A stretch of 37,841 bases of DNA. Origin: Catajapyx aquilonaris. Its lineage: Eukaryota. The stretch lies in assembly GCA_000934665.2 (NCBI GenBank), contig JYFJ02003763.1, forward strand, positions 1-37,841, given 5' to 3'. Shown here piece by piece: positions 6,001 through 31,100 of the stretch. Position numbers and translations under genes: made by a program. The number at the start of each line of letters is the position of its first letter. Within the stretch, counting starts at the first letter, position 1. The notes beneath the pieces are model-generated. The model had not been told where the DNA came from, made no database searches, and saw nothing but the letters and a program-made list of their open reading frames with translations.

Positions 6001-6290
6001 AATGATTGACAGGTAAAATGTTAAATTTACTGCTGCATATTTTTGTCATGTGTAGATCGGCTTTCCTACCTTTGCAATTCCAGGTATCACAACAATCATC
6101 CCCCGTCTTTGGTACTTGAGTACAATCCAGGTCTTTTGGCTTTTCTCCGCAAACGATTGCATCACATGGATCGTCCGGTAGCCAAAACATTTCCCCTCCG
6201 AATACCATGGCCTTCTTCTTTTCGACATAAATTAGTTCCGCATCTTCTGTTTCCCAGCCACCACCTGGGAATTACGCCACGAAAAAATGC

Positions 6291-6358
<68 letters not shown>

Positions 6359-9300: not shown

Positions 9301-12300
9301 ATTTCTGTGCATTCCAGATCATCTTCCTCAGGTGGTTTCAAACACTGTACATCGGCGCATTCGTCGATTTCTAAATCCAACTTGTCTGGTACGGAGAAAA
9401 ATTATTTAATTATATAGGACAAGCATTGCACAACCGAACAACATACCTTGGCATGTAAATTGTGCGCAGCATTCCCCTTCTACAATGTCAAGTATTTCAC
9501 AAAGTAGATTATCGTCTGTCGGTGGTAGATCACACTCAACATATTCGCAAGGATCACGCTCTGATGGAAAGAAAAAAATGCATGCCGGAAGATCATATTT
9601 GGAGAGTTATCTTCATAATACTTACCACGACATTTATAAATTGTGCAGCACCTCCCTTGTTGTTCTATACACTCCAATTCGTCATGCCTTGCTGGAATGG
9701 TGCATGTTACATACTTGCAGTACTCTTCCTCTATCATTATTACTCCGGCTCTTACACAATCTACATAAATTGGACAACAGTTGTTGTCTTGTGGTTCGTG
9801 ATCACAGAATATTCCATCTGGTAGCGGCAAACACTGTCTCAGATCACATTTTTCTATAATCACATCCTCGATCACCTTGACCGCTATGAATGCAAAAATG
9901 AGCTTAGTATCAGTAAAACATTTTAAAAAAAAATGTTAATGTTATGCTAACCTCGGCAGTTCCAGTCGGGGCAACACTTTCCTTCAACACGTACTTCTTC
10001 ACACTCATCTCCTTCCGGTGCTGCTTTGCATCTCACATAATCACATGGACCAACTTCCACTTCCATTGTTTTGGCCTCTGTTGGTTTAGAAGTAATGAAA
10101 TTAGTGCAGGAATATTAAAGAGACGAAAAGCGATCAGTTACCATGACAAGTCCAAGTTGGACAGCAGTTATCTTCCAAGACTTCACTTTCGCAGTGGAGT
10201 TCTTCAGGTGGAGACAAGCACTCTTGCAGCATACATTGTGTGTGCTCCACATCGTACAGTTCAATAGCTGCGAATGTGTCAATAAAACATGAAATTTTTT
10301 TCTCTCTAGCCATAAACAATTGACTAATTACCTAGGCAGAAGTAGTCCCTGCAGCACCACTGTGGTAGCTTTTGTGACGTACACCTGAACTCCTCAGGTG
10401 GTTCATTACATATTGCTAAATCGCATGTTTCTACCGCAACATCTACCATGATTTCCTCTAAAAAAGCAATGCTCTTCGTTAGTGCTTACTAAACATTCAT
10501 TTGACTACCTCATTATTTTGTCACCTCGGCAGGTAAATGTTGGGCAACAGTCGTCGTCCACCGTTTCTTCCTCACAAATAAGATGACCTGGAGGAGGGCT
10601 GCATTTGGTATACTGGCACTCTTCCGCAAGCACAGCTTCCAATCTGAGATCTGAAAGTTATGCAGATGTATGACGAGGTCAAGTACAAGTATTTAAAAAG
10701 TTATTACGTTGGCAGGTGTATTTAGGGCAGCATCTGTCAGGTGCGATTTCCTTTGAGCAATCCTCGATGTTAGGTGGAGGTGTACATATAACATTAACGC
10801 ATTGGTCGTGATGGAATTCAAGAATTTCTCTCTCTGAAATGTGGGAAAATAGCATGATTTTTAGTTCAAAATATCATATGTGTCTAACTCTGCAGATTAA
10901 TTTTTTTGGGACAAAACATGGCAGTATATCTGAATAGAGATTCCCCTATACCTTCACAGTAAATATAAGGACAGCATTGGCCTTCAACGAATGTTGTTGT
11001 GCACTGAAGATGTTCTGGGGGAGCCTCACATTGGACGAGTGCACATTGATCAACTTCTATAGGTCGATACTCCGTTTCTGTAATAATAGATCACACACGT
11101 AAGGGATGCAGACATAACAAATTCTACAAACATACCTTCGCATGTCCACATTGGACAGCAGCAATTTGGAACAGGTGTTGGAACGCAATTCTTGTCCTTT
11201 GGAGGGTCAATGCATTGCACATATTTGCAGATTGGAGCCTGGACGTATATGATTACAGGTTCTGTAAATGACAAAAAAAGACGGAGTAAAAATCATGTAT
11301 GGTCATAAGAGTTATGCTTTTTTACCTTCACAAGTCCAGACTGGACAGCACTGGCCTTCAATATGTTCTTTTGTGCATCGTAGACGTTCTTCCGGAGGGA
11401 AGCAGACTATTCCATCACACTTGTCGATCTCTACAGGCTCCACTCTGAGTTCTGGAAATAATAATGTTGTCATTTTGTCACCATGTAACACCCTTTAGGC
11501 TACTTATGCTAACTTGTGCAATTCCATTTGGGACAGCACAATCCCTCGATGGTTATTTCCTTACAGTCTTGATCTTCAGGCGGAAACCCACATGTCGTAT
11601 CAATGCAAATATCTCGTACTATGTAATCAGTGAACTCCTCTGAAATAAGACATTAGTAATTATTTAGTATAAGAATAGTGCCTCCAAGATCTGGCACTTA
11701 CCTTGACAGGACCAGTCTGGACAGCAATAACCTTTGTCAATCTTTTTACAGATGTAATTCGGTGATGGGTTAAAGCATTCTTCCAATTCACACTTATCTA
11801 TTGCTACATCATTGATCTGCTTAACTGTAAAAAAAAATTAACGGATGAATATTTAGTGTGTGAAACACTTTAAATGGCTCGCGAATAGCTATATTGCCTA
11901 TCAGGTTACTTCAAATAGTTGAAATCTATTTGAATGTAACCCAATTTATGTTGATAGGCACTCTACAACGATTCTCGAGGTAGGTCCACTGACCCTGGCA
12001 TTCCCAAGCTGGACAACACGGGTCAGTACCATTCGTACTAGTACAGACGTATTCTGGGTTGGGCTCGTTGCATTCTACCATGTCACAGAGGCTAATAGGC
12101 ACATCTGTCGCTTTTTCCACTAAAAGGGGGGTTAAAATAATATATGAACAAGTGATTAAATGTAGAGATGTAAAATTAAGTAGATAATATGAAACGTACA
12201 ATGGCATACGAACTCCGGGCAGCATTGATCTTCAACGTCATCCCTCTCGCAGTTGTCTATGTTATCAGGCTCTTTACAACGGACCATGGAACACATTTCT

Positions 12301-15300
12301 AATATTCCGGCTACATTTTGGGTTGCTGTAAGTCAAAGTGGTCGCCAATTTTAATTTAATGTGTATAGTTATGGGAAGTCAATTTAAATATTTATCTTAA
12401 ATTGTACTCCAGTATACGCTCAATGGGAACTGGAAATTGAATAGTTTTGTCTTCGAAAATAGCGAAGAAAACTACTGTTCATCTTACTCTGGCATGTCCA
12501 CACGGGGCAGCATTTCTCTGGATCGTCTTCAGGTGTGCATTCTAAGGTTGCAGGCGGATCTATACATTCAGTCAAGTCGCAATCTTCGAGCAAAACTGTC
12601 GTCAGTTTTGTTTCTGCAAACCAAAACGCATTTTTAATTAGTGGTTGATTATTCTTTAGGTTGACAAAGTGAGAACATGGATCATTCAGTAAAAATGCCT
12701 ACATTCTCAGAAAAAATATTAGTTGTATTTCCGATCCACGCAAGTTTGACCAGTAACTTCTGAATACCTCCGTATACACTGCACAAAACTGATATGATTT
12801 CACACTTTTTATCAATAATAGTTTAGACACAACATTACCTTGACAGTCCCACTCCGGGCAGCAGTCTGGTTCATCAGCAACCTTGCACATGTATTGTTCC
12901 GATGGCTGTAAACACTTTTGTAGTTGGCATTCTTCAATCTCCACGGTGTAATTCTTTGGTCCTGTAAATAGTAAAACATATATACTAATCCGATTTGTAA
13001 CTAGTCCTGTCAGTATGACACCAAGTATTTCAAGTTGATACATACTCTCACATGTCCATTTGGTGCAGCAGTCTCCTCCTTCAGGAACTGCTTCACATCT
13101 GAGCGATTCAGGAGAAGGAAGGCAGGAAGTGGTGAAACACTCGTCTCCCAATGCTGTAAATCAGAGCATTGTATATGTCAGGGCATGTCAGTTACTAGGA
13201 AATAAAATGTCTTACCATTTATGGATAAGGCCATCACTCGTTTCTCTGTGGAATGTATTTTGTTATTAGATGAATGTATGCTATGATTTTTTAGGGATAT
13301 GTGCAGAGTAGTTTGTAACACTTTTAGAACTAGCAATTGAAGATATTTAGTCATGGACACCTAGGCTGCGGTATGATAATCAAGCCAGTTGCTAAAGCAA
13401 TATATTACAGTTTCTAAAGAAAATACTTGGAAACACGTGATCCAATAAGACATAACGTCAAACTATCACATCCCGAGGTCATTTCAATGTGACTCGGATC
13501 GTTATACATTCATGCTTTCAAATTATTAGGTGCTGTTACAATTGAAATATTTATCTCACTCAGAGGTATTTTGCTTGTCGAACAATGTACAATGAGAAGA
13601 AAAATATTGGAGGGACATAATTGACGTTGTCCTTAGAAAACCATTACCCAAGGGCAAAACAGAAAAATCTTTCTTCCTCCAAATTTTGTCTTTTTTGCAT
13701 TTTGATAACGCTGAATTTCTGCTTTTCAGAGATACTTCTTGATTAAATTATGTCTACCGCTTGAGAAAATCATTTTTCAAATGTGTAAACACCATTTTGA
13801 CGTGCCATTCCCACTTGTGACATATATGGATATAAATCATTTTTATGAAACATGTTGAATCTATATCTGTGCCTTAGAAAAGCTCGCATTACAATTAATT
13901 TATCTTTTGATTCTCTCTCTCAGCTACAGGAGCTACAGGACATACTCTGCACATGTCTCATCTCCTGATTTTGACTGATAATGTGTTTATTATTTTAAAA
14001 AAGTCCTTACCTCGTTTTACAGGTTTCGGTGGAGCCGCTGAAAAATAACAGGATAATTAATTATAATTTCATCATTAAATTTATTGTCATTGACGCTGAA
14101 ATTCAGCTTACCTGGTGCTGGAAAAAAATGAACAATTCTGATAAGTGATTTTATCCCAACATTGCACCTGATATAATAACGGGTGATGCATCAAACTCAC
14201 CTACTGCGACCACTTCGACTTCTTCAATTTCTAAATCCAATTTGTCTTGGAATGCAACGTCTTGTGTGTGAGTCACATCCACTTGAACATGCTCCACGTT
14301 AACTGCAGGTATATGTTCTTCCCAGGCATCGAAATTCATTCTTTCGAGGGTGTTTGCCTTTTTGACCTTGGTGGTTTTGGTTTTGATGACGTCCATCGTG
14401 AAGCTTCCGTCAACTGCTCCCGACATCGCCGACATCCCGGACATCCCGGACATCCCGGACATCCCGGACGCATGCATCCCGGACATCCCGGCCATTCCCG
14501 CCATTCCTGCCATTCCCGCCATTCCTGCCATTCCCATTCCCATCCGTTGGCTGCTTCTTACTTGGTGGGTATTAACTACTTGATGCTGCTGTGCTTCCTG
14601 TTCCCCAGAATCTTTGTGGACATAGGCCATACTCATGCTGGATCTGTATGCCTCTCCAGGTCTCCGTTCCATTTGTGTACCGCTGCCGCTGGCACCCATA
14701 ACCGAAGCGTAGGGCATCTCAACTTCACCGAAGCCGCCTCCTTTTCCTGCAAATGTCTGTAAAAGTTCTCCTCCAGGTCCATAGCCACGGCCTAAGTCAT
14801 GAGAATTAAGTAATTAATTATTATTATTAATTATATTTGAATATACAAAATATTTACCTGCAGCACTGTTTGACGATCCTCTGCGGGTTTTCTCTGGATT
14901 AAAAAAAAAATCAGAATTGTGTAAAGCAGTAACTTTAAATTTGTTAAATTATTACTCACCGCCAGTTAATAAAGACGTTCTCTCTTCTGCAAGTTACATG
15001 AAATAATAAATTTGTTATGAGACTGTTTCATTGTTGCATTATTACAAGTGTGTTACTGCCAGCTCAAATTTTATGCCGGATCGTTAAAGTACCACATTTG
15101 CATTGTGGCTGTGAGAGGTGGGAAATTCAATAAGCTTTAGGTTCATTGTAATCTCTAATATATCTCTGAGGATCGATGTGCCATTTCATAATTTTTAGTG
15201 GAAGTTGTTGCTAATTATATCAGTTAAATATGTCCCGTTTTTGCCGTTTTTGTCCGTTTTTGCATGGCCACATAATTATGTCATCGATGGTGCCTTCTCT

Positions 15301-16107
15301 TGTAACCTCCGGGACAATTACGGGATGGTTCACTTTTTTTATAATGGAAACAGACTCTTGCTGCCTTAGTTATCCTTATCCTCGGATAATGCGTCATACG
15401 AATTTCACTTTCTGCTTTACCACTGTGTGTTGGGGGGAGGGGGCTCTCGTGTAACTGAGAAGGATCTTAGAAGAGATAACATCTGATACCCTTATGCAAC
15501 AGCTTAATATGAATGGTCCATATTGTATGGCACTATCACTTTAAAATTCTATTTCACTGAATATTTCCCCTTCGTTAATAATTCCTCGAATTATAATGGC
15601 AAATTCAATGCTTTAAAATTATAGATCGAATATTAATCTGGTTTTGAGACTCCCCCTGTTCTTCATATATTTCTTACGGTATATTATAACATTTAAGCCC
15701 GACTTAAGCTACGAGTTTCCCTTCTCTTCAAACGGACCCACCAATTGGTCGTTACTCAAATGGTCTAACCGGCATGAAACTTAGCTCATGTACAGCATTT
15801 GAACAAACTCAACCTTTCGCACTGACGTCCATATTCCAGGCTCGTACACCTAGTTCAGGTCCTTCTCCTAGAATCAAAATAAACACTTGACTTACAACAC
15901 TGCCTCAGTATAAAGTTGAGTTGATATTTCACACTGACCTTCCTCTTCCTGAGCACCCTTTCCACCTTTTTTTTGTCCCTTTGGAGAACCTTTCTGTGGT
16001 CCTCCTTTGCGTTTGTCTGCATAAGCATCTTGAAGGAACAGGCAGAAAACGAGCACAAGACACAGGGTATAGGTGGCGTTGAGCTTCTTCTTCTTCCAGC
16101 CCAACAT
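3025..16107 (-). CDS. Gene A: giant secreted cysteine-rich modular protein (54 exons, ~2,427 aa, 42 Cys modules); family not recognised, VWC-C-half-like repeats
   Basis: Exons read manually, all AG/GT-bounded and phase 1, summing to 7284 nt with no internal stop: 16107-15939, 14986-14960, 14893-14858, 14791-14201, 14117-14112, 14037-14011, 13245-13216, 13153-13046, 12961-12839, 12613-12488, 12325-12200, 12119-11994, 11824-11702, 11639-11514, 11451-11326, 11261-11136, 11077-10952, 10833-10708, 10650-10525, 10457-10332, 10267-10142, 10077-9952, 9883-9626, 9560-9447, 9385-9260, 9189-9055, 8993-8871, 8813-8682, 8614-8477, 8420-8286, 8230-8102, 8035-7904, 7844-7638, 7435-7304, 7222-7031, 6972-6841, 6753-6562, 6490-6359, 6264-6070, 5993-5862, 5791-5612, 5537-5403, 5347-5210, 5096-4992, 4923-4789, 4718-4578, 4506-4399, 4315-4181, 4100-3960, 3881-3720, 3645-3499, 3424-3281, 3213-3106, 3041-3025 (GRGRG-stop). 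Signal peptide MLGWKKKKLNATYTLCLVLVFCLFLQDAYA|D. Confidence 0.88.
6291..6356. repeat. (AAT)22 microsatellite in a gene A intron
   Basis: Perfect trinucleotide run directly adjoining the donor GT at 6358-6357. Confidence 0.97.
14201..14791 (-). CDS. Gene A exon 4: Cys-free low-complexity domain with (GMA)n(GMS)n repeat
   Basis: 591 nt open exon between ttag| and |gtgagt: GRGYGPGGELLQTFAGKGGGFGEVEMPY...MGMGMAGMAGMAGMAGMAGMSGMHASGMSGMSGMSGMSAMSG...DKLDLEIEEVEVVAV; overlaps ORF 14151..14717. Confidence 0.85.
14420..14545. repeat. Coding 9-bp tandem repeat (Gly-Met-Ser / Gly-Met-Ala)
   Basis: (gacatcccg)n and (gccattccy)n on +, encoding GMS/GMA on - within gene A exon 4. Confidence 0.9.
15939..16107 (-). 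CDS. Gene A exon 1: signal peptide + Gly/Lys-rich N-terminal segment
   Basis: Basic n-region, hydrophobic core LCLVLVFCLFL, A-Y-A cleavage motif, then DKRKGGPQKGSPKGQKKGGKGAQEEE; donor G|GTCAGT, phase 1. Confidence 0.85.
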
Positions 16108-17783
16108 GCCGCCGACTGTGCTGTAACTGAACGAAATTTAGCCAAAGTGTAGAGTTCACAACAAGAACAATGCACAATCCATGCATGTATCCATTTACGT
16201 AGCAATGCTGAGACAATAGGAACCTATACACATACAGTATGTCTATCAGTCTTTAATCAGGATATAAAATAAATCACAATGGCTATCTTCTGACGCTCTG
16301 CCTTTTTCCCCCTCCCTCTCTTGACCCCAAAGAATTCAATACTCTATCATACGAGTGGACGACGACGAACAATTTCAATACTCATGGAATTATCTGCACA
16401 TTACTGCCACCGCCTCAGAAACGGTAGCACGTGGAAGTTAGGCATAAATGGCACTAGGTTATACCTTTTTAGACATACACGTCACGTAGAAGTGACTATT
16501 GTTTTATTCCGGATCACCTACGTATATTCCGACAGGATCACACGTCACAATAAACTGCACTGCAGAATAACATATGGTGTGTTGAGTAGGCTCTAGTTCT
16601 TTTTTTACCTGGCAAGGGTGCGGAGGTAATGAGCTGCAATATGAAATTTCACACTACTTATGTCACGATAATGATAGTTCTGATGTCATTTGGGGTCGAT
16701 TCATTTGGTATCAAATTATGGCTCCTTTAAGGATAAATGTGTAATTAATGTGTCTGGCATACATCATTCTACTGACCGATAGAATGGAACTTACAGGCTA
16801 TTCTGTCCTCTTAATGGTGCAGACTCGATACCCGGAAGACAGGGACGGGCCTTTAATTATGATTGATTACACAACAATAGATGATATGAAATTTTTTGGA
16901 ACCAAATTGATTATGCAACCATGTTAAACTACAGTAGGTTATTTAACGTCAATCACATCACACAAGACGTTAGCTCTGACGTAAGAGAATGCAGGCATTA
17001 TATGGTCAACTTAATAGATAACGCGACGCGACAGTTCTCAGAGAATTCACTTCTGGAATCTATACCACTCTTCACATTCCCATCAATGGAAATGGGGAAA
17101 TTAAGTTATCAGTTGGCATAATGGACATTTTAGATAGAATATTAAATACAAAACACATGTATGCAAATGTACAGCATGCCTCAATATCAATTTACATTAA
17201 AAATCACAAGCACCTGAGTTAATATTTTCATTGCCAGTTGAATGTTTTTAATGAGATATTGTTCTCTTCACGTGTCGCAGCGATTCCCTCCTTTGTGTAT
17301 GCAACACTTGATGCATGAAACAAAGGTGGGACGGATTACTTTGATTAAGGCTATGATTAAACTGCCATATGAAGGTGGGTGTAATATACGACTATAGAGA
17401 TGAGTCGTAATTTACTCGTATAGGCTATTACTTAGCTTGTCGCGACTGGATTAATGTACTTGCACTATTTTGAAAATTAATCATTGTGCCAAGTCTTTGC
17501 AATAGCTTGGCAATAGTCATTAAAAACACTAGACTAGAACATTCTCAGGAGAACAAAAGTAGCAATTTATTCCGGATCTTTCTAAGCTAACTTCGCAATT
17601 CCCGTGATAGCAAAAAATATATCCGCAAAAACACGCTTCTCAAAACTTACCGAAACATTGATAGCGAGAAATCTTTGGCTAATGTCTCTAATGAAATGAT
17701 CAAATTTTAAAAGCATACGGCATTGCGATGAGGAGCTCCGTAATGAAATGGCCTATAGGAAAGAATCATAGACCATTTTGTTT

Positions 17784-17883
<100 letters not shown>

Positions 17884-19479
17884 AAAGAGTAGAATTTCAT
17901 TGGTATACTCTGGCAGGTATTTTATTTTATTGTAGTTGTGTAGTGTTCATTTGTCATTGTACAACTTTTATCGGTCGTTTTTAGATAACATTTATTAGCA
18001 CTTAATTTTTACTACTGATGAGAGTGTAATGGGGTTGTAGACTCTGTTTGAGCCACCACCTTTTATGCTGTAGCTACAGTTATGTTCTTAACAATCATCG
18101 CATGCATTGGTGGCATTTCAAGCAACAAACGAACACGCAGCAATGAACGGCCTGCAACAGTAGCCAATACAAATTCTTCCAAAAATTAGCTCTGACGTCA
18201 CGTGTGACGATTCAGTAGCAAACAGAACACTACATACTATAGGCACCAACTTGCCAAAATTTGGCAAAAAAATAAGGCAAAAGTGCGAAAGTGGAGAGAG
18301 AAAGAGCGACATCCGGCAGTTAAGGGCAGAAGTATGACCGTGAAGTGCAGAAGTAACGAGTATTATTGACAAACAATGACCATCTCTGCTATTCAAACAG
18401 TTCATTTGAAATGGTACCTATAGTATTTTATTATAACAAGCTGCGAGCAAGATATGTAAAGCTGGCGTATAATTATGTCCTGCAAGAAAATTGTATTTGT
18501 AAATACAGTGAATAAGACAAACTCAGATATCAGCAATTTATTTTATACAGTACTCTACAGTTAATGAGTCACCCTGAAATTTTGCCTAGGTAAATACACA
18601 AAGAGTAATATATTGTAGTCCGTTTGCCTTCTTTTTTCGATAGGCTACTACGAGTACATACTCCCGTTCTTTTACGGCTTCTGGTTTTTATAGATAACTA
18701 AAATCAAATCCCAGAAAATGGATATAAAAATGTCCGCATAATTTGATACAGTCATATTTTAGAAAAATAGAATGCACCCTATTTTCCGTATTTTTTTCAT
18801 ATTTTTAACGACTCAGAGCATAGCCACCTGATTTGCAAGTTCCGGGGGCGGTGTTGCCATACGTCTTGCAAGAAATGCCATGATTGTCAAATAATGTTTT
18901 TCGCCATATTCGTCGTTACCTGTTGGTATCACGACCCTTGAATCTCTCACCCTTACATTCTACATTTGCTTCAGGTCAGGGGTCGATTTTATGCGACTGA
19001 AAAAAATCATCGTAGATGAGAATTTTATTTGCGATATAAATAATGTGGTTTATTATTTTTAATCAGTCCAATGCACAAGGGACACAATGAGACGTGCTTT
19101 ATGGACGACATCTAGGTAAAAAAATTATTGATGGTATGCCCTGAATATATATGCGAAATCTATTAATATCTATATGCGAAATGATTGATATTTTTTACTG
19201 GCTGACTCCCCACGTATGTAACGTAAACTTCAGTGTTTGTGTTTTTGCAGATTCGTTATGTGCGATTTCAGGTAGGTTTTTTGATGACATGTGCCATATG
19301 CTACCATCGGTACAGCTGAAAAGAAACGGGAAATAAGAGTTACTTTCTCTTGTTCTTCCTTGTTGTACCACACCCTGTAAATGTTTTTTCTTCTTCTTTA
19401 AATCCAGGCATCATTGTTCTGAGCTTCTGCAATTTCTGTAAGATACATTCGGTTGGTTGTTGGTTATGGGAGCCAAAGC

Positions 19480-19660
19480 AACTATAGACATCTGGCTTAG
19501 GGGGCTTAGAAGGTTTTTTTTTTTTAAATATGGGAGGAAACAAAAGAGCCCCGAGAAGACCCACGAGAACATAGGGAGAACCTCTGAAAACTCTTTCCAT
19601 TTGAGAATCCTCTGTCTGACCCGGGGATCGAACACGGGACCTCAGAGGTGGAAGGTCCTG
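19480..19660 (-). mobile_element. 5'-truncated tRNA-derived SINE with V-SINE-like central domain
   Basis: Minus strand: B box GTTCGATCCC, then GAGTTTTCAGAGGTTCTCCCTATGTTCTCGTGGGTCTTCTCGGGGCTC...GTTTCCTCCCA, resembling the conserved V-domain as I recall it; A box missing, the adjacent MITE starts where it would be. 3' boundary approximate. Confidence 0.6.
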
Positions 19661-19664
19661 TATA

Positions 19665-20002
19665 CAGGGTGTCCCATCTTTTTTGTCAGAACAGTTATCG
19701 GAAAATTGCGCATAGCTGCTACTTTTTAAGCAGTGACTTGCAACCGGTGATTTGTCGGAGGAATGGGGAATGGGGAATGGGGAAAAAGAGGGTCATACAT
19801 CCCATGACATGTGTGACCCTCTTTTTTCCAGGTTTGACCTTCAATTTTCAGCGGCGCCACTTCAACCTACGATTCGCAGGGAATATTCCCCGTTCCTCCG
19901 CAAAATCACCGTTTGCAAGTCACTGCTTAAAAAGTAGCAGCTACACGCAATTTTCCGATAACTGTTCGGACAAAATCAATGCCTCATTTTGGTACCCGTG
20001 CA
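19665..20002. mobile_element. Tc1/mariner-like MITE with ~90-bp inverted arms
   Basis: TA|CAGGGTGTCCCA left end; arms ~19682-19770 and ~19885-19976 (AACAGTTATCGGAAAATTGCG...AGCTGCTACTTTTTAAGCAGTGACTTGCAA and its reverse complement); right terminus degenerate. Confidence 0.75.
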
Positions 20003-20083
20003 TTTTTCAGGATTTAAATTTTTTTACACAAATCGGTTATGGACTGGGATATGTATCAGACACTACTACTTCATTTTTCACTC

Positions 20084-20089
20084 TTTATT
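20084..20089 (-). promoter_or_regulatory. Candidate polyadenylation signal, gene C
   Basis: AATAAA on minus strand ~145 nt after the stop at 20235. Confidence 0.45.
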
Positions 20090-20234
20090 TTTTGAAGTAA
20101 ACCATATTAACATACTACTTTTTGTGAGAGGCGAACATTAATTAGTGAAGATATTTGGTACCACTGGAACCTCAAGGAGTCTTGGCTGAATTCACTCCTT
20201 GGTAGGAAATAATTATTCTACAATCACCATGTCC

Positions 20235-23131
20235 TCATTTTACTAGTCCTGACAAGAGGGCATCCATGCTATGTCCAGCAGTGTTTCCGTCCCTATTTGC
20301 CTTTCCTGCACTTATTATTTTTGAGAATGCATTCATTAGAGACTTTGGAGCTCCCGATTGTTGGAGGCCGGCTGCGTGCGGATCATCATCCGGTTCGTCT
20401 GACCCAAACCCTTCTTTGCCGTATTTCAAAAGCCCGTCAGTTGGCCCAAAGCCCTTACCTAATTAAAAACGTTATATATTAGTGTTATCACAATTATTAC
20501 CAAGAAATATTGTGCAGTAGTTCTTACCTCCTGAGCTGAATGACGATCCACTTTTTTTTGTTCCTGTTTTGAAGGTATTAAGATAAAAAAATACAGTGCA
20601 ATACGTAAGTAACCCGATTGAAACCAGAGCGTTAATTTCAATTTCAAAATGAGGTGGAATTTATGGTTTCAAAAATGACATCAAAGGATATAAGCACATA
20701 ACTTGAATCGAAAATAGTCAATGCCTAATAAATGAAAACTTTGTCAAACGTAATTATTTGATCCTCATTACATCTTTTCAACATTGTACAGTTGTGGAAA
20801 TGAATGGAGAAGTACAAGTATCGCCTGCTGGCTGAGTTTTTCCGTTACATGAAGCAGCTAAATGTAAAGGAAAACTCCGCCAGGAGGCGATACTTGTACT
20901 TCTCCATTCATTTCCACAACTGTATGGCCGCAAGTGTACCGCGCAATTTTATGGGTCAAAAATAATTCAAACTGTAGAATGAAGGTAGTATGTGGTCCAG
21001 GCCTTAAAATGTGAAGAAGACAGATATGAAAAGAGTCACTCCTTCATTATTTTTTAACTGTGACACTCCACTCAAAAAACAAGTTTGGCTCTAAAAATCG
21101 GGCAAAAAATCCTGAATCCGACGGTGCAATCCGTTTTTCGCTACGCGGAACGGTAATCCCAGGGCGAGGTGTCAAAGTGTGTCGTCTGCTAATGAGCGGC
21201 GCCGCCACGCGGGGAACAGGGGAACTGGAGAGCTACACCGCTCTGGGATTGGCCAGTTCTCAAGGTCCCGAGGGCGTCGCTGGCAGACGGGCAGCTTCTA
21301 GCGCACTATTTGCATTTCCCCACTTTGACCCCTCGCCCTGGGATTACCGTTCCGCGTAGCGAAAAACGGATTGGACCGTCGGATTCAGGATTTTTTGCCC
21401 GACTTTTAGAGACAAACTTGTTTTTTGAGTGGAGTGTCCCTTTAAGGATTTGAGTGTGGAAAAAATTATACGGTATAACAGATATTCCGAAACATCATTA
21501 AGTTAACACAGTTATTCTCAATAAAAACTCAGTGCTGGAGTTACCTACAAGACTGGTTTCACTATGTTTGCCATACCACCTAACTTTAGAGACCAAGTCC
21601 AAACTGGGTCCTACGCGAGACTTACACCGGGTATAACAACGAACCACTGTTGACGGAAAGACTTTCATATCGGGAGACCGAGTGTGGCAGGGCCGCAGGG
21701 GTGTGGGCACGCTGTACCAATCTATCCCATGACTTAACTTTTCTTTCCGGCGGATACACGCCTATCTTTCAGCAGATACAAGCCTATAGGAAAGTAGGTA
21801 AAAGTGCGGGATCTCCTGATATGAAAACGTAACCCTTCACATGTCGCCACCAATGATTTTTCATTCCGATTGCCCCGTAGCATCATGTGGTACAGTTGCG
21901 GTCGAACAATTATGTATACTTTTCAGAGATGGTCATTAAATTGGTAACTACATACCATTTCATGCATATTGATCGTATTGTACATTACTCACCGGTAGCC
22001 GAATTTGTTCTTTCATCTGTGGTTCATGAAACAGAAGACACGGTATGATCAAGTACTGTACACGTCATATTATCTACTGCAGGGGTTCGGGAAATTAAGT
22101 ACTATATCGCCCAAAAAGATAGAACCGATTTTGCATTTGACTCAAGTGCAACTTGCACTTGAATCAAATGCCAAATCGTCTCTATCTTTTTGAGCGATAT
22201 AGTACATGACCGGTCCAACGAGGGGTTGTGGCTGACAAAATCCAGTATAACCAACATAGAATGGCGGATCTCGCCTCTTGGGCTTCCCTACTATTGGATT
22301 AGTCAGTCAAAAGTCCAACATAATGTTGTGAGAAAATTGAAATGTGGTAGGAGGAAAGTCGACAAAATCGGACCCCCAATTGGTTTTTCCAGTATAACTT
22401 CCTAAATGTTAAAGTTCCACTTAATTGCTCGATGTCAAAAGTTAAAAGTGGCTATAACAAAAATCCACGTAAATATTCCAAGTTAATGGCATTTTAAAAT
22501 TTAGTAAAAGTCTTTCGCACACTTTCTCCTCGCTTCCCCCCCGGAATTTGGGGGCTTTCCTCTACTCATAGGTACCTCGTCAGACCGACCATAATTATGT
22601 TTATGCCAGTGAAGACAAAATAGCATTAGTCCTATGTCACAGCTTTGTCACTGACATGCACACGATTTCTTCACAAGGTCTCATCAGTTGTCTTCTCAAC
22701 TTTTATGTCTAATTGAAGTACTTACAATACTGTGGCATAGGTGAGCATATTCACTGGCAAGAAGCAATAGAGCAGAGTATAACATTTTTGGGGCAGTTCT
22801 AATTGAGAAGAATCGTAACCTTTGATACGAGCTTTCATTGACCATGCCCGAGCTTCCAGTACTGCTTCACCATCTGAAAAGTATAAAAGATCTTTTCAGA
22901 TTAACTGCACCTTTTTACTTACCACGATTCTTTCATTTCTTTCATGAAGTCAATGTAAACTATGGAAATACTGTAGCCGATGCTAGATTCCAGAGACACG
23001 ATTTGTCACCCTTTGCGATTCGCACCCTGAGGCGGATCATCTTCTTCTGCATACGCATACTGAAGTAGAAGACAGGACACGAGCACAAAACGCAGGGTGT
23101 AACTTGGCTTCAGCTCCTTGCACCCCCACAT
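20235..23131 (-). CDS. Gene C: short secreted paralogue (129 aa) matching only exons 1-4 of gene A
   Basis: Exons 23131-23026 (MWGCKELKPSYTLRFVLVSCLLLQYAYAEEDDPPQ; donor G|GTGCGA is the weakest link), 22016-21993 (DERTNSAT vs A EERTSLLT), 20563-20528 (36 nt, GTKKSGSSFSSG vs A 36 nt EKTRRGSSNSAA), 20458-20235 (GKGFGPTDGLLKYGKEGFG... vs A GRGYGPGGELLQTFAGKGGGFG; ends LLSGLVK-stop). 390 nt in frame; AATAAA downstream. Confidence 0.75.
20789..20922. mobile_element. Tc1/mariner-like MITE (134 bp hairpin), gene C intron 2
   Basis: TA|CAGTTGTGGAAATGAATGGAGAAGTACAAGTATCGCCT...AGGCGATACTTGTACTTCTCCATTCATTTCCACAACTG|TA; 38-bp perfect TIR plus TA duplication. Confidence 0.9.
21058..21441. mobile_element. 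Kolobok-like MITE, gene C intron 2
   Basis: TTAA at 21054-21057 and 21442-21445; ~120-bp TIRs (GACACTCCACTCAAAAAACAAGTTTG...CCCAGGGCGAGG.GTCAAAGTG); right end reads TTAA|AGGGACAC on the minus strand. Confidence 0.82.
21663..21827. mobile_element. Probable decayed small TIR element
   Basis: TTTCATATCGGGAGA-CCG ... CGGGATCTCCTGATATGAAA inverted pair; no clear target duplication. Confidence 0.35.
22099..22205. mobile_element. Palindromic MITE, copy 2 (same family as 1873-2000, opposite orientation), in gene C intron 1
   Basis: Near-identical reverse complement of 1873-2000 without the 22-nt duplication; GTAC at both ends. Confidence 0.85.
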
Positions 23132-23463
23132 GCCAAGGTCTGCTCAGCGACTGATTCAATATCAGTTGAATGCCAGTACCATAGAAAAGACAGTGCGTAT
23201 GCTAGCTAATATTAGTGGCAATATCACCTGCTATTCTATACAATGCAAGAATAAAATGAATCACAATAGCTGCATTCCGATATTTTGCATTGACTCAGCT
23301 GCTGTGAGGATAAAGTGTCAAGTTGTTCACGATGCTGAACAATGATGTATGATTTGAGATATACATTTATGTCATGGAACAAAACTGGCATTATTATGCA
23401 ATGACGTCAGTAGTATACGACGTAGCTATAAGAGCGAATGAATTGTTTCGGAGCGTCTATTAA

Positions 23464-23937
23464 CCCTTAACTACGTAGGTGGGCGAAACACCTTTAACTA
23501 CGTAGGTGGAGCCTGAGAGGCTCCAACGGCATATTTAAATTTCTGCTTATCAACTAAATTGTTACATTGGACTTTTCACATACAGAAAGTGCAGTTCAGA
23601 TCATTAGGCTTCCGATAACGTAAAAATCACACGCTGAGTCAGCATATTCCGACAGGAAAAAATTCTTAATTAAAAGGTTACATCATGCTTGAGCTGCTGA
23701 GTCTTCACCTGCATAGGTAGAGCCAGTATAGAGTCCAGGAGGGACCTGTTCCTCGTTACGATTTTTTTTAAACCAAACAGTAGGGACTAAAAAATTTTTT
23801 CTTTCCTTTTCATGCTTAGGAAGATTTTTCTGACAAAGTCACGGAAGGACAGGGGAAAATAAAATTCAATGAAAAAGTTACATGCTGCGTTTAAATAGTG
23901 CTTGGAGCCTCTCAGGCTCCACCTACGTAGTTAAGGG
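23464..23937. mobile_element. piggyBac-like MITE ~330 bp upstream of the gene C ATG
   Basis: TTAA|CCCTTAACTACGTAGGTGG...CCACCTACGTAGTTAAGGG|TTAA; extra subterminal repeat TTAACTACGTAGGTGGAGCCTGAGAGGCTCCAA at the left mirrored at the right end. Confidence 0.9.
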
Positions 23938-24319
23938 TTAATCTTAGGCATGAATGTGTCTCTCCATCTTCTTCTTGTCGTTACGACTACTACTATTTCC
24001 ATCCTGCCCGTGGGCCCGGGCGCTTCAATAAATAGGCACCAACTGTACAATAATAAAATAAAGGTCCGTGTGATATACCCCCATTTGGGGGTGAAAGCAC
24101 TATATATGGGTAAATATCTCTGAGAGTTAATTCAGAGTAATTGGTGCTATGAATAAGGCCTATTCACACTGCTTGTCGACAGTCTTGTTGAAGCAGAGGA
24201 CCAATCAGAGAGAGCCCTCGCAGTCCGGCGAAGAGGCAGCCGATAACGGTCGACGACAAAGTCAGAGACAAATCTCTGTTTTTGTGGAATATGTTTTTGG
24301 TGGAGTCCAGGTCGATTTA

Positions 24320-24500
24320 AGCTCCGTTTACATGACGAGCGCAGCGAAGTCATCGCCGAGTGACGTATAACCAATATTGTTTGACGTGAAAGTAACAATC
24401 GATTTTCGCCTCAAACAATACTGGTTACTCGGGTTACTCAGCGTTGTTATCACCGGCGATGACATCGCGCGGTTGAAGTCGCTCACATGTAAACGCACCT
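24320..24500. mobile_element. PIF/Harbinger-like foldback MITE
   Basis: TAAGCTCCGTTTACATG...CATGTAAACGCACCTTA ends; nested inverted pairs GCGAAGTCATCGCCG/CGGCGATGACATCGC and TAACCAATATTGTTTGA/TCAAACAATACTGGTTA. Confidence 0.65.
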
Positions 24501-24924
24501 TATTTAAACACTATTTGAATCGCAGTCTAGTACAATTTCTTGTAAGCTTACCTTGCCCATTCTCTGCTCAGCCTTTTTGGGGGTCAGCTTCAATTCAACT
24601 CTGTGACACTCTGTTTTTAGAACACCGGATCTGGCTGACAACCATGCAACCAATCCCTATTCTATAGCAAGTATAAGGCCTTTCCCTCTGTAATTACCCG
24701 GTCATATAGGTAGCTGATGAAGTGGACACGACATGATACTATACAATACAGTGCAGTGGTGCGATGAGATACAGTATTTCATCTGGTAGGCCTATTCTGT
24801 AGAGACTCCTAGACGTCCTGAGACGTCAAAAGACCATCTGTATGTTCAGCTTAATTTCGCAGACTTTATTCCTATTATTATTAATGCACAATATTCCTCC
24901 CATTTATAGGTCATGTATATATCA

Positions 24925-25031
24925 GTCCAACAAGAATTGTCGCAGCGGCAGCGCACGAACTACAATCTACGAGCACAGGGACACGAGAGACTGTAGTTCG
25001 TGCGCTGCCGCTGCGACAATTCTTGTTGGAC
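24925..25031. repeat. Perfect 40-bp inverted repeat (27-nt loop), probably MITE-derived
   Basis: GTCCAACAAGAATTGTCGCAGCGGCAGCGCACGAACTACA (24925-24964) and exact reverse complement (24992-25031). Confidence 0.92.
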
Positions 25032-25104
25032 ACCACTGGAGGGGTAATAAATATATATCTATCTATCATCTAATACACAATATTAGGCAACTAGGTAAGT
25101 TTGT

Positions 25105-25110
25105 TTTATT
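25105..25110 (-). promoter_or_regulatory. Candidate polyadenylation signal, gene B
   Basis: AATAAA on minus strand ~40 nt after the stop at 25149. Confidence 0.4.
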
Positions 25111-25148
25111 ATAATTATTGTACATTACAATTAGTTTCTGCAACATTT

Positions 25149-28100
25149 TTAGCCGATCATGAGTGGTAGTTGCATTCCTCTTCCACGTCCTCTTCCGCTG
25201 TCGCCTGAGTTTAGAAGGTTGTTATGTACAATACGTAGATAAAGTGGATAATACTTTAGAAGTAGGTATATGTCAACCTGTCAAATGTTATATTTGAATG
25301 GCTCAATGGAACAAAAGCCCAAGTCCAGTCACAGAAATTTGCATGTCTTGACTGACTTCATAGAGAATGTCACTAATGCATTTGACAATTTTTCATATGA
25401 GAAATGCTTTCTGACAACTTACCTCTGCTTCCATGGAATAGTGGTGCAAGGAGTCCCTCATCACTTTCATCACTTTCTTCACTACTTGGATATTTATTAA
25501 ATCGGACTGCAAAGGGAAAGAAGCTATTTATGAAGAATACCATAGTATAACGACCAGGCTTACATGAGTGCTGCTTTGCAATTTCCTTCCATTTTTTGAC
25601 TTTAGATGATCTGTCATAAATTATAACGACTCCATTTAAATATACTGCTTCCAACCCAGCGGACGTTTTGAAAAGGAATACATCACTCCATTTCCATCTC
25701 CTGCCTGAAAATTAGCATTACATGCATAAAATATGCATCGACACCACTTACAATTGTAATTGATATATTACCATCACATGTCCATAGAGGGCAACATGCG
25801 TTGGACACACTGGCCTCTTTATGGCAGCCATGTTTACTTCTTTTGCGCTTTGGACTTTTCTTGCATGGAAACAATTTACAAGGAGGTACACCAGTAGATA
25901 ATTTCTTCATACTCGCGGGAACTAAAAATATGAAATGTGTCATAATGATACCATGCTTCCTAGGAGCTATCAGAAACAGGTATGGAGTGAACACATGACA
26001 AATTGGTCATTATACAGTATAGGAGAAATAGCCATTAATGGTGCTAGACCAAAGATCAACAGTATACATTAACATCAGTTTACATTAATCTTTAGACAGT
26101 ACATGGGGTGTACGGGTCTTAACTGTCGATTAGTATCTCTCGTGCAAAGGTCACGGGATGGTCAGAAAAAATAACTTCATTTTCAGCTGGATCAGAGAGT
26201 ACTCACTGTTGCAGACAAAATTGGAACAGCAATGATCTGACCCAGTGTTAGAAGTGCACTGCAAAATTGCTGGTGGCATTGCACAAACATGATGAGGACA
26301 GCTGCCTTTTATGTAAGTAATGTCATATGCATCTTCTGATGCTTTTACCGCTCCTGGAAGTGATGAAAGAACTTAATATTGTACTGTGCATCAACAAGGA
26401 AGACTAGAATGAACATACCTGCGCTCCTACTAAGCATCCCTTGTGCATCATTCCATGTATAGATAGATGATACGGGATTGTATGTGTATGTATTTCCCCT
26501 GAAGAGTACCTTTCGAACTCCACCAGCCACATAAAATATGAAAGATTCATCTTCTTCCCACTTATTTCCTAGAAATATATACCTTTAGTGCTTGTTTAGT
26601 TGAGGAACAGGTACCGGTACCTTTTGCTCAGAACTTACCCATGCATGTATACCGAGGACAGCAAATATTCTCGACAACTACTTTCGTGCAACCCCAACTT
26701 GGAGGGGGTACCTTGCATTCGATTATAAGGCAAGGATCAATTCCAATCTCAACATCCGGTACTTGTGTCATTTCTGTTAAAAACATAATATGGTAATGGG
26801 TCATTCCATGTCAGATCACCAAGCTTGCAAGGAAAATTGACCCTTGCGTAGTCGGATCATTAAGTCGGCGCATCGCATCGGTTTAATTACATCTCACAAG
26901 AATACCATTTGCGCGGTAGACACAATGTATTCTGTCTTCTGTGACTGTCTTATGTATGTATAATAGACGAGACCTCGAATGTCCGTGAAACTGCCCGCCA
27001 TGTCAAGTTTTAGACTTCCAGTGATGTCATTCGTGTGACCTTGAGTCCCGCGTGGTTGACCTTAGCGACCCAGAAAACTTCTAAAACCACACCTCACTTG
27101 CCACATTTATGATAAAAATTCGCGAAACCCAAAATTATTCAGGGTTCTAACATTTTATTTTCGAAATCAGTTGGGTCGAATGAGTCTAAAAAGGCTTGGT
27201 TGAAGCTTGTTTCCAATTCTGCATCCAACATGAACGATGCGAGATTTGGCCGCACATGCGTTTCTTCAAATGCGATTTATTTCTTAACTTGACAATTTAC
27301 TCCATGGTTATATTTTTTTCGTCAAGGAAAGGGTCTAAGCTATAACATATTTTAAAATCAGATTTTTAAATTGGGAGGTAATTTTTTTAAAATTACATTT
27401 TCAAATTGGGAGGTAATTTCTCAAAAAAATGACATTTTCAAATTGTAACAAAATTTTCAAAAAAGTCAAGATACAAATTTTAATAATGCAGATGGATTGA
27501 GCTCTCGAATCCCTTCAAATGGAATGATCTACGACGTCTGTAGCTCAATTTGTTCAGGAGATATGAGCGATATATAACACCCTACCTTCCGAAAATGCCT
27601 TTTTTCAGTGAGCCTATATCTCCGGGGGGGGGGGGGNAGTGTAAATTCGAAAACCGCGCAAATGATATTCTTCTGAGACGTAATTAAACCAATGCGCCGT
27701 TTTTCTTCATGATCAGACAACCCAAGGGTCAGGGGGCTCGGTGAATTGACCCTAATATGCAAGTCAATCAGGCATACGTTCCTTGACTTGGAAACTAACC
27801 TGTACACTTCATTTTTCCACAGCATTGCTTAACTGATGCCCCTTTTCCTTCGGCATTGCATGACAGTATTGGAGGTGGTACTGCACACTGTCTGCTGTGA
27901 CACATCTCAGCTGTATTAGAGAATGAAACTTAGTTTCCTCAGAATCAACCCAATTTTTAGTGAAGACTCACAAGTGAAAACTGTATTGGCTAGTAATTTG
28001 ACTCTGATTGACGACGACTGATCATGTACAATGATACCACCATCGTAATAAGCAGCATCCAAGCCTCCTATTCTAAATTTAAACGTTACTTCCCAAGCTT

Positions 28101-31100
28101 GACCTGTCAGAAATGGAACCTTTTAGTTTGTATTCATATACATCCAATGCAACGACTTACCATGGCACATCCATTGGGAACAGCATGTTCCATGTAAAAT
28201 AGATTCAATGCATGTTTCCGGATTAGGAGGTTTGCTGCAACTGATTACTTCACAAGGTGGCATACCTACCTTGACTTGAACCATATTCGGGGGAGCTTAA
28301 AACAAACGGATATGTGTTATTATAAGAACACTAATGAACGGCAATGGTAGTTTACCAGTGCAAGACCAAATAGGGCAACAATCGCTCTCTGATATCTTGC
28401 TCTCACACTTGAGTTCTTCCGGAGGAGACGCACAGGCTGTGCTGCCACATCTTGATCCTGTATTGGGCCAAAACATTAGTGTGGTATCAAACTCAAAATT
28501 TTAAATGTGTTGAGAGAGTTTGACAAGTTTATGAAAATAACAACTTCATATGAAACTTAACAGCAATTCATTGTCACTTACGCAGTGCCATGTCAGATGC
28601 TGCTTTCCATGTCATTATGCTGGATCCCATATTAAATTTTAAGACCATGCCATTGTGGCGGACAGCGGGAACTCCATTAATGTAAAACATATTGGGGACT
28701 TCATTATCCCACGCACCAGCTAAAAGTATTAGCAGTAGTTAGAATGTTATTGCATATGTTAAAATGCTGGTTTCTCTTACCTACACATTTCCAGTTATCA
28801 CAACATGAATCTCCTGCGCTTTGTTTCGTGCATTGATATTCAGATGGAGGTTCCTTACAAGGAATTAGTTCGCAAACATGTTCATTTCCCACCTCGATAA
28901 TGGTCATCGTTGATGGAACTTTAAAAAAAACAATTTCTTTAGATTCATGTCATTTCTTCTTATAGGATTCCTCACCTTGGCAATTCCATCCTGTGCAGCA
29001 TGACGACTCTCCTTCCATTTTTGGACTGCATTGCAATCCCTCAGGTTTCCCATTGCATTTAACGTCATTGCAGCTCTTCATCCAATATAATGATCCTTGG
29101 TACACCAGTGCCTTTCTACCATCAATGATAACGACATCTTCATCTCCCGATTCCCATGGGACGCCTAAATCTGTTCATAAAGCATGATATTACTCGAAAC
29201 CTCTACCCAAACGTCACACCTACCTAAGCATATCCATTGGTCGCAACATGTGCCTTTCTTGGGTGCCTTTCTACAATTCATAGATGGCAAAGGAGTTTTG
29301 CATTGGACCACGGAGCAAGGGTCTCGTCCTTCTACTATTTTATCGGAAGATGGTGCTATATGTGAGAGAGAATAGTTAGTAATTAGTGCCAATCATAATC
29401 CGGATTACTAGGTAGAATCAGTTCTGCTTAATAAAATCATGCAAATTGGCTAGAGATTGGGTAGTTATGCTTTTGTTATGTCTTGTAGTAGACTACTATT
29501 GTAGGTTAATGTAATTTAATTCTTAGTTGCATGTAATGATGTGGAAAGTTGACGCCAGCAACAGCACTTCTGTCGATGGACAACTGTAATGTTTCAGCAG
29601 ATGCGTTATTGTTGGTCGCCCCCATCTTTGAGCAATGAAATATTTGCATTTTCATCCTTAAATGCAATCGTGTTATCACAGCTCTGAAAATATACTGTAG
29701 CGGTTGAGGCTAATTTTTTTCACATTTGCTTTTGGGCATAACTATGCAACCTCTATGGAAACCTAGCATTAGGTTAATACTGAGCCTTCTACTTGGTACC
29801 TCTGCATTTCCAAACATTGCAACACCCATCACGTTCTCCATCAGTACATTGTAACCACATGGGCTTATAAGGACAGTATATGCCATCACAAGAATCTGAC
29901 GGGAGCCAATAAAGCTGTCCTTGATACATCATGGCTCTCCTTCCTCCTACAGTAATCACATCTCCATCATCATGCGTCCAACTTCCTCCTGAAGAGATGG
30001 CAAATTATTGCATATGCTTAGCCTGAAATATATAAAAAAAAGAATCTGCCTACCTATGCATATATATTTACTGCAGCATGCTCCCCTTTTGGGAGACAAT
30101 GTGCAACTCAGTTCCTGTGGGGGAGTTTTGCATTGCACCAATTGACAAGGATTTGACATGTCTGATATTCTGAAGGACTGTGACCCTGAAGGAATAAAAA
30201 CATAAATTATTGTGAGAGGTATTTACAAACCTGAATTATTTAGAAGGGTAAGGCTTTTTTTTCTCATACCCTGACATTTCCATACACCGCAACATTGACC
30301 AGTTACTTTGGTTTCTTGGCATCCGAGTACTTGAGGCGGTTGTGGGCAGTTAACATTTTCACAATCTTCATCGGGAAGCCAATAAATAGAGCCCTTATGA
30401 ACCATGGCTCTCTTCCCTGATATGTGTATCAAAGAACCATCGTTCTGTTCCCAAGAACCACCTAAAAATCAAGGTAATTGCAAATTATTCTTTTCATTTC
30501 ACTTGTCAATAAAAATAGGCACTTACCCAGGCAGTTGTAATTGTAGCAACAAGATCCTTTTGTCGGTAATTTTGTACAAACCATATCTTGTGGTGGTTCC
30601 ATGCATTGAATCATAGAACAAGGGTTGGATACTAGTTTGATTTTAGCTTGCTGTGTTCCTGAAATATTATGATTCCTTTCAAAATCTTAGCTTCTGGACT
30701 TGCCAGTGGAGACACATACCTTGACATCGCCACCCATTACAACAGCTCTCGGAAATAGGAACAGGTTCGCATGCAAGGTCACTTGGTGAAAGAGGACACT
30801 TAACGTTCTTGCATTTCTCATCAGGAAGCCAATAGTATTGGTTGTTATATATCATAGCTGGTTTGTATCCGATGTAAATTTTGTCTCCGTCATCTTGATT
30901 CCAATTATTACCTCCTGGAATGGCAGAATTCCGAGTTATTTATTATTTATTAGTCTATGTGGATCAGAAAGGATTATTATGAATGGTAGAAAATTGATGA
31001 TCCAACATCACTTCAAAGTATTCTGTGGATGATTACAAATTGCTGTTGAAAATACCTAAATAATATACCATCATTAACATTTTGTGCAAATTGGAAGCAT

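Follow-up and report, generated by a model that had tools for sequence, protein, structure and literature searches.

A candidate truncated tandem paralogue confined to the 5' exons of a giant modular gene in Catajapyx aquilonaris

The window analysed here is a stretch of 37,841 nucleotides (nt) from Catajapyx aquilonaris (contig JYFJ02003763.1 of assembly GCA_000934665.2, positions 1 to 37,841 of the forward strand). It holds two giant genes, A and B, and between them a small gene, C, which is the subject of this work. All three lie on the minus strand, with C upstream of A by 4 kb. The DNA has an animal-like look, with short introns, miniature inverted-repeat transposable elements (MITEs) and microsatellites. 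Genes A and B are built from small cysteine modules, nearly all one per phase-1 exon, and are described further below. The features assigned to gene C and its introns are as follows.

23150-23154, minus strand: initiator-like TCAGT of gene C, its A lying 21 nt 5' of the ATG
23131-23026, minus strand: exon 1, 106 nt, phase 1, with the ATG at 23131-23129, the putative signal peptide and an acidic EEDDPPQ
22016-21993, minus strand: exon 2, 24 nt, phase 1-1, whose peptide carries ERT
20563-20528, minus strand: exon 3, 36 nt, phase 1-1, encoding KK and then GSSxS
20458-20235, minus strand: exon 4, with an A-like start, a unique tail and the TGA stop at 20237-20235
20217-20212, minus strand: variant AATAAT, read from the sequence
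20089-20084, minus strand: likely poly(A) signal AATAAA, the first canonical one, 146 nt past the stop
20069-20057, minus strand: GT-rich stretch, 15-27 nt beyond AATAAA
22099-22205, no strand assigned: MITE-like palindrome in intron 1, 53-nt arms, 91% complementary
21062-21438, no strand assigned: MITE-like element in intron 2, 118-nt arms, 97% complementary
20787-20924, no strand assigned: MITE-like palindrome in intron 2, 54-nt arms, 96% complementary

When the exons are joined from 23026 to 22016, from 21993 to 20563 and from 20528 to 20458, they form an open frame of 129 codons with no other stop and no frameshift, and the ATG, the stop and all six splice dinucleotides are in place. The initial annotation of this DNA, made from the letters alone, had described an open reading frame (ORF) closed by a stop and an AATAAA, free of cysteine modules in spite of several intronic MITEs. 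The open frame holds with the exon 1 donor at 23026/23025 only and is lost if exon 1 ends after ANRKG. The stop and the AATAAA are both present, although the first canonical signal comes only 146 nt past the stop. Three MITE-like palindromes account for the intronic elements, and the lack of modules was upheld by a hidden Markov model (HMM) scan of positions 13200-25300, in which no cysteine module was found and the best match had an E-value of 0.38. With its own TCAGT, terminal exon, stop and AATAAA followed by a GT-rich element, C bears the signs of an independent gene. Its exon 4 tail of about 55 residues is unique: neither A nor any collection searched gave a detectable match to it. The intron 1 palindrome at 22099-22205 has a second copy at 1873-2002 near the window start (approximately 107-130 nt, 76-81% identical).

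The comparison with gene A used the following features of its 5' end.

16130-16126, minus strand: TCAGT of gene A, with the same 21-nt spacing to the ATG as in C
16107-15939, minus strand: exon 1 of gene A, ATG at 16107
14986-14960, minus strand: exon 2 of gene A, 27 nt
14893-14858, minus strand: exon 3 of gene A, 36 nt
14791-14201, minus strand: exon 4 of gene A, with a Met/Gly-rich repeat inside

The proposal that the four C exons match A exons 1-4 in order, phase and peptide motifs is confirmed by the sequence and by the chain search described below, and the exon coordinates place every junction of C and A in phase 1. In the signal-peptide core, 13 of the 18 residues are identical between C and A. 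Both genes encode ERT in exon 2 and GSSxS at equal positions of a 36-nt exon 3, in which the dibasic pair is RR in A and KK in C, and both begin exon 4 with the pattern GxG[FY]GP..LL...GK.GFG. The nine bases GTGAGTAAT stand directly 3' of exon 2 in both, and intron 3 is of nearly the same length in both, with 69 nt for C and 66 for A. The TCAGT upstream of each ATG is presumably the arthropod initiator consensus. Within A exon 4, a tandem repeat of 9/18 nt (14418-14535, minus strand) encodes a Met/Gly-rich run of MAG and MSG units that separates the leader of A from its first module; C has no counterpart of it.

The likeness is most evident in exon 1, where the DNA of C and A is 71.6% identical over 95 nt and the protein score in a scan of the window is 81, against 43 for the next best place; blastn finds exon 1 only. 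For the start of A exon 4, the best non-self protein match is C exon 4, narrowly (38 vs 35), and the same segment has no match in C at the DNA level, its score being reached by 177 of 200 shuffles. A chain search was conducted for series of phase-1 mini-exons, bounded by AG and GT, that lead into a terminal open frame; it was scored against A exons 2-4 with no exons preset. It returned exactly C exons 2-4 with a score of 73 (null 52.3 ± 5.3), which was reached in none of 82 other windows and none of 100 shuffles. The spliced C protein aligned to the A N-terminus with a score of 141, and codon shuffles gave 30.9 ± 8.8 with a maximum of 62 (n = 200). In pairwise DNA alignments, the scores of exon 1 (z 7.8) and exon 3 (z 3.9; 23 of 36 positions identical in a global alignment) were each reached by none of 500 shuffles, that of the exon 4 start (z 3.2) by 2 and that of exon 2 (z 2.0) by 22. 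The corresponding counts for intron 3 (z 0.6) and the first 100 nt of intron 1 (z 0.3) were 146 and 196 of 500, and the similarity of the 30 nt 5' of the two ATGs was reached by 8 of 500. Judged by these comparisons, the homology of C and A is far beyond chance.

Splice donors were scored with a position weight matrix (PWM) trained on 69 module donors of A and B. The signals around the end of C exon 1, with a slash marking the exon end, are these.

23026/23025, minus strand: frame-keeping donor CAGG/GTGCGA, PWM 6.7, at the 22nd-23rd percentile of real donors
23010/23009, minus strand: rival phase-2 donor AAGG/GTGACA, PWM 5.0, 16 nt 3' of the frame-keeping donor
23008-23006, minus strand: in-frame TGA directly after ...ANRKG
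22915-22926, minus strand: donor CGTG/GTAAGTAAA, exon end 22923, GT at 22922, PWM 9.9, 65th percentile, the strongest nearby

The frame-keeping donor was chosen by us for the frame of C. The warning that an in-frame TGA follows ANRKG, and that another exon 1 donor would break the frame, proved correct: an exon 1 ending after ANRKG needs either a donor other than GT or the GT at 23009, which is in phase 2, and use of the GT at 22922 stops the ORF after 41 codons. The TGA is the kind of disabling change expected of a pseudogene; splicing at the GT of 23025 would bypass it. An alternative in-frame isoform is conceivable from donor 23010 and an acceptor at 22009, which scores poorly (0.7). Since the exon 2 donor of A scores only 5.3, the C exon 1 donor is within the working range. 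C exon 2 has an acceptor of 4.6 and a donor of 6.0-6.7, and the donor of C exon 3 scores 9.1-9.5. Among the acceptors of A, those of exons 2 and 3 score 11.5 and 9.5 and that of exon 4 scores -2.6, the lowest of all; the acceptor PWM thus discriminates poorly, because a site in A falls below all those of C.

The age and constraint of C were estimated from codon comparisons. Over 111 aligned codons, C and A differ at a proportion of 0.75 of synonymous sites (pS), which is saturated, and 0.40 of nonsynonymous sites (pN); the 28 signal-peptide codons gave pS 0.54 and pN 0.26. Between A and B, five pairs of collinear exons gave pN 0.35-0.40 and pS 0.76-0.94. As the C-A divergence is like that between A and B, C would in these terms be as old as the A/B split, and the matching pN suggests that the C protein has changed no faster than the giant genes. 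Loss of constraint is not apparent in C: its exons are significantly A-like and its introns are not, and pN is 0.40 against a pS of 0.75, a noisy estimate. In a simulation of neutral drift on the coding sequence and the six splice dinucleotides of C (5000 runs), the share of runs that left the gene intact was 5.7% at 0.1 substitutions per site and 0.5% at 0.2, and no run did so at 0.5. An intact C is unlikely under neutral drift, and so selection appears to have maintained the gene through most of its existence.

C is predicted to encode an acidic, cysteine-free and probably disordered protein that is secreted and about 101 residues long. The conceptual protein has 129 residues, of which 28 form a putative signal peptide ending in AYA at residue 28, with a hydrophobic core of mean Kyte-Doolittle value 2.49 over 11 residues from residue 13. 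The mature part of 101 residues has an isoelectric point of ~5.0, a grand average of hydropathy of -0.87 and no Cys, and is rich in Gly, Ser and Asp. The AlphaFold2 (AF2) single-sequence model of the exon 4 peptide was of low confidence, with a predicted local distance difference test (pLDDT) score of 62.8, and placed helices at residues 8-15, 39-54 and 58-73 of that peptide; the product perhaps has two C-terminal amphipathic helices. The sole HMMER match of C exon 4, a bacterial repeat protein (E 2.3e-5, in five stretches), was judged spurious. The same exon had no match in metagenome contigs or Pfam and no usable match in the ESM Atlas, and A exon 4 had no homologue among longer proteins or metagenome contigs. 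A role of C as a neuropeptide precursor, considered for its dibasic pair and a ..YGK sequence, was dropped, as canonical patterns for amidation or cleavage are missing and a homologue was not found.

The best explanation, to which we give an even chance of being correct, is that C forms a gene of its own, an old and truncated tandem paralogue of A and B that encodes a small secreted protein. It would retain only the 5' cassette of the family, which comprises a core promoter, a signal peptide, a pair of mini-exons and the beginning of exon 4. Transcription would begin at the TCAGT 21 nt 5' of the ATG and end past the AATAAA at 20089, and the protein, of about 101 residues, would be secreted after cleavage of the signal peptide behind AYA. 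Since the dibasic pair, GSSxS and the exon 4 motif are leader motifs held in common with A, C would probably share a processing step or a binding partner with the A N-terminus, and it could then act as a soluble competitor or co-factor, by analogy with other N-terminus-only paralogues. The initial annotation had offered a small secreted partner resembling a released prodomain of A as one possibility. The part of this that stands best is the intact N-terminus-only paralogue, supported by the open frame, the conservation of exons over introns and the gene's own two ends. The released prodomain lacks direct support: the one sign of it common to both genes is a dibasic pair, and C also has the motif after the pair.

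A number of observations weigh against this explanation, and several of them favour the competing view that C is a recently dead relic. The stretch of C aligned to DKRKG of A reads directly into the TGA, and the 9.9 donor, 103 nt 3' of the frame-keeping 6.7 donor, lies beyond that TGA, while exon 1 of A has a single strong donor (9.3) without a competitor. The acceptors of C are low on the PWM (3rd, 14th and 1st percentile), and together with the exon 1 and exon 2 donors they are weaker than most training sites. C exon 4 had no credible homologue in a HMMER search of 1.84 billion representative proteins. The pN of 0.405 is only 2.7 standard deviations below an alignment-optimised null of 0.525 ± 0.044, and codon usage is uninformative, with A exon 4 in the 10% tail of non-coding ORFs and C exon 4 in the 13% tail. 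In scans of the whole window with A exons 2 and 3, the C exons were not significant singly, and the function proposed for C is analogy only. The relic view holds that C is an unprocessed pseudogene or non-coding remnant of a paralogue, truncated or complete, that was functional through most of its past, and that correct splicing or coding of exon 1 was lost through the TGA after ANRKG and the downstream donor, so that no 129-residue protein is made today. We consider this the lesser possibility of the two, yet one of real weight: the TGA stands right after the segment aligned to A exon 1, the strongest donor lies past it, and no homologue of C was found among the representative proteins, the metagenome contigs or the Atlas. 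Like unprocessed pseudogenes, C arose by tandem copying with introns included and falls short of its parent in length; transposable elements have inserted into its introns, and a stop stands where exon 1 of the parent continues. Unlike them, it has an open frame through a canonical upstream donor, no frameshifts, and exons that are conserved where introns are not. The GT at 23025 opens all 129 codons between an intact ATG and stop, and its score exceeds that of the donor A uses after its own exon 2. Such intactness, with the six splice dinucleotides, is unlikely after at least 0.1 neutral substitutions per site, so any death of C must be very recent.

Two further explanations are much less probable. 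The initial annotation had also suggested that C1-C3 serve as an alternative 5' cassette of A, the donor at 20528 being joined to A exon 4 (14791) or exon 2; a transcript from the C promoter would read through C exon 4 and give A a second signal peptide and leader. The phases permit it, since the junctions of C, A and the modules are all phase 1 and joins keep the frame, and C lies upstream on the same strand. In variable first-exon clusters of the protocadherin or UGT1A type, several cassettes lie upstream, each with a separate promoter and in a phase that fits the shared downstream exons. Such cassettes lack a terminal exon of their own; C, unlike them, has its own exon 4 homologue with open frame, stop and AATAAA only 69 nt past the C3 donor, an intron size common at the locus, and A has its own TCAGT, ATG, signal peptide and complete first exons. 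The transcript would have to pass the C poly(A) signal and the start of A, and a join at 14791 would skip the better acceptors of A exons 2 and 3 for the worst. There would also be no reason for C exon 4 to remain open and A-like if only C1-C3 mattered. We therefore regard the cassette as improbable. Still more improbable is a chance resemblance or an over-read model in which only exon 1 is a genuine duplicate fragment and the three downstream exons are fortuitous. The scans with A exons 2 and 3, which do not rank the C exons first, and the missing DNA-level match of the A exon 4 start speak for it. Against it, the chain search yields exactly these three exons with a score that none of the other windows or shuffles reached, exon 3 and the exon 4 start beat their shuffles in pairwise alignment, and coincidence would have to cover the 36-nt exon 3, the nearly equal third introns and the nine bases after exon 2. 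The remaining probability was assigned to models not foreseen here.

NOTCH2NL, a human paralogue of NOTCH2 limited to its N-terminus, is the nearest known system in kind. According to one report, it keeps the NOTCH2 promoter and exons 1-4 and ends in a short tail of its own; the product is secreted and influences the pathway of its parent (10.1101/221226). The truncated paralogue proposed for C is likewise a partial copy with the parent promoter, exons 1-4 and a short unique tail: its first exons follow A in order and phase with TCAGT at 21 nt in both genes, and it has an open frame with the 23026 donor, a tail of its own and its own 3' end. The two differ in several respects. NOTCH2NL retains folded EGF modules, whereas C retains just the leader, without any cysteine module; at an age of a few million years NOTCH2NL is near-identical to its parent, whereas C is saturated at synonymous sites; and the NOTCH2NL tail lies in a former intron, that of C in the exon homologous to parent exon 4. 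The expression and pathway activity described for NOTCH2NL are putative in C. A more specific version, which we put forward as a speculation that is rather unlikely to hold, is that C is a selectively retained, secreted, leader-only decoy that competes, by means of the dibasic pair, GSSxS and the exon 4 motif, for a factor that processes, sorts or assembles A and B. It would tune the deposition or signalling of the giants and be an ancient invertebrate counterpart of NOTCH2NL-type regulators, derived from a disordered leader instead of folded modules.

If C is expressed, a short disordered leader of a giant modular protein of matrix or signalling can persist very long as a gene of its own, which would point to a function of the leader itself in processing, sorting or partner binding. 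As a protein of about 100 residues, C would also offer an easily studied entry to two genes that are otherwise hard to handle, with 37-40 modules each, in a family missed by standard domain libraries. Without expression, C would be a commonplace remnant of tandem duplication.

The cysteine modules of the two giant genes were located by HMM search, with a model trained on 46 of the 69 listed module exons.

3500-13151, minus strand: modules of gene A, 40 in number
25773-36949, minus strand: modules of gene B, 37 in number

The 77 modules in the window thus fall below 13200 (A) or above 25300 (B). The consensus has six invariant Cys, C..V.C..PP....C.......G.CCP.W.C. Module exons are commonly 126 nt long, and a longer type of 186-207 nt has a GGWE..Y..W extension. 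All 69 GT-flanked module donors are in phase 1; the module exons are phase-symmetric, so any exon skipping in A or B would preserve the frame. Gaps between module exons are at most 100 nt in 39 of 68 cases. The 5' end of gene B lies beyond the window edge. Non-module C-terminal exons are common to A (3207-3464 and 3568-4128) and B (25373-25711 and 26345-26584), all on the minus strand, with approximately 39% identity and saturated pS; A and B are therefore old tandem duplicates.

None of the 46 modules matched Pfam, the Pfam VWC family included. A single module used as a homology query gave no match, an Atlas search likewise none, and a PDB sequence profile search nothing meaningful (E 0.24). 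The profile of the 46 modules matched one crayfish protein, annotated as "kielin/chordin-like protein isoform X1" (E 1e-15); in hhalign, the long module type aligned with one complete VWC repeat of this crayfish protein (probability 87.7%, E 3.4e-6). A module modelled with AF2 reached a pLDDT of 79.7; the top Foldseek matches of that model were the VWC domains 5nb8 and 6fwn, which were non-significant, with nothing at an E-value of 0.001 or below. On the profile match, the hhalign alignment and the VWC domains at the top of the Foldseek results, A and B are identified as divergent VWC-like (kielin/chordin-like) repeat proteins. The correspondence of their modules to the crayfish repeats holds at the profile level and does not extend to C, which has no module; the N-terminus of the crayfish protein showed no likeness to the A/C leader on inspection. 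With no Cys in the mature protein and no module, C falls outside the VWC family in terms of its domains.

The spaces between B, C and A yielded no additional gene or family; the intergenic ORFs there gave no Pfam family at an E-value of 0.01 or below, and Rfam had no match in the window. Between the 3' end of C and gene A lies an inverted pair, 19681-19771 and 19885-19975, 92% identical over 91 nt, which is probably another transposable element; the long ORFs around it (19340-19792, minus strand, and 19588-20100, plus strand) have no Pfam match. Downstream of A, at 1498-2190 on the plus strand, ORFs with a CCHC-like zinc-knuckle look include a weak Pfam match to Znf_SCAND3 (1936-2190, E 0.0065) and may be the gag remnant of a retroelement. 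In the intron region of A, at about 6231-6419, a long trinucleotide run that reads as poly-Ile or poly-Asn was seen in the ORF list only. Perfect microsatellites, (ATC)21 and (AGT)12, lie at 17784-17883 and were confirmed with Tandem Repeats Finder.

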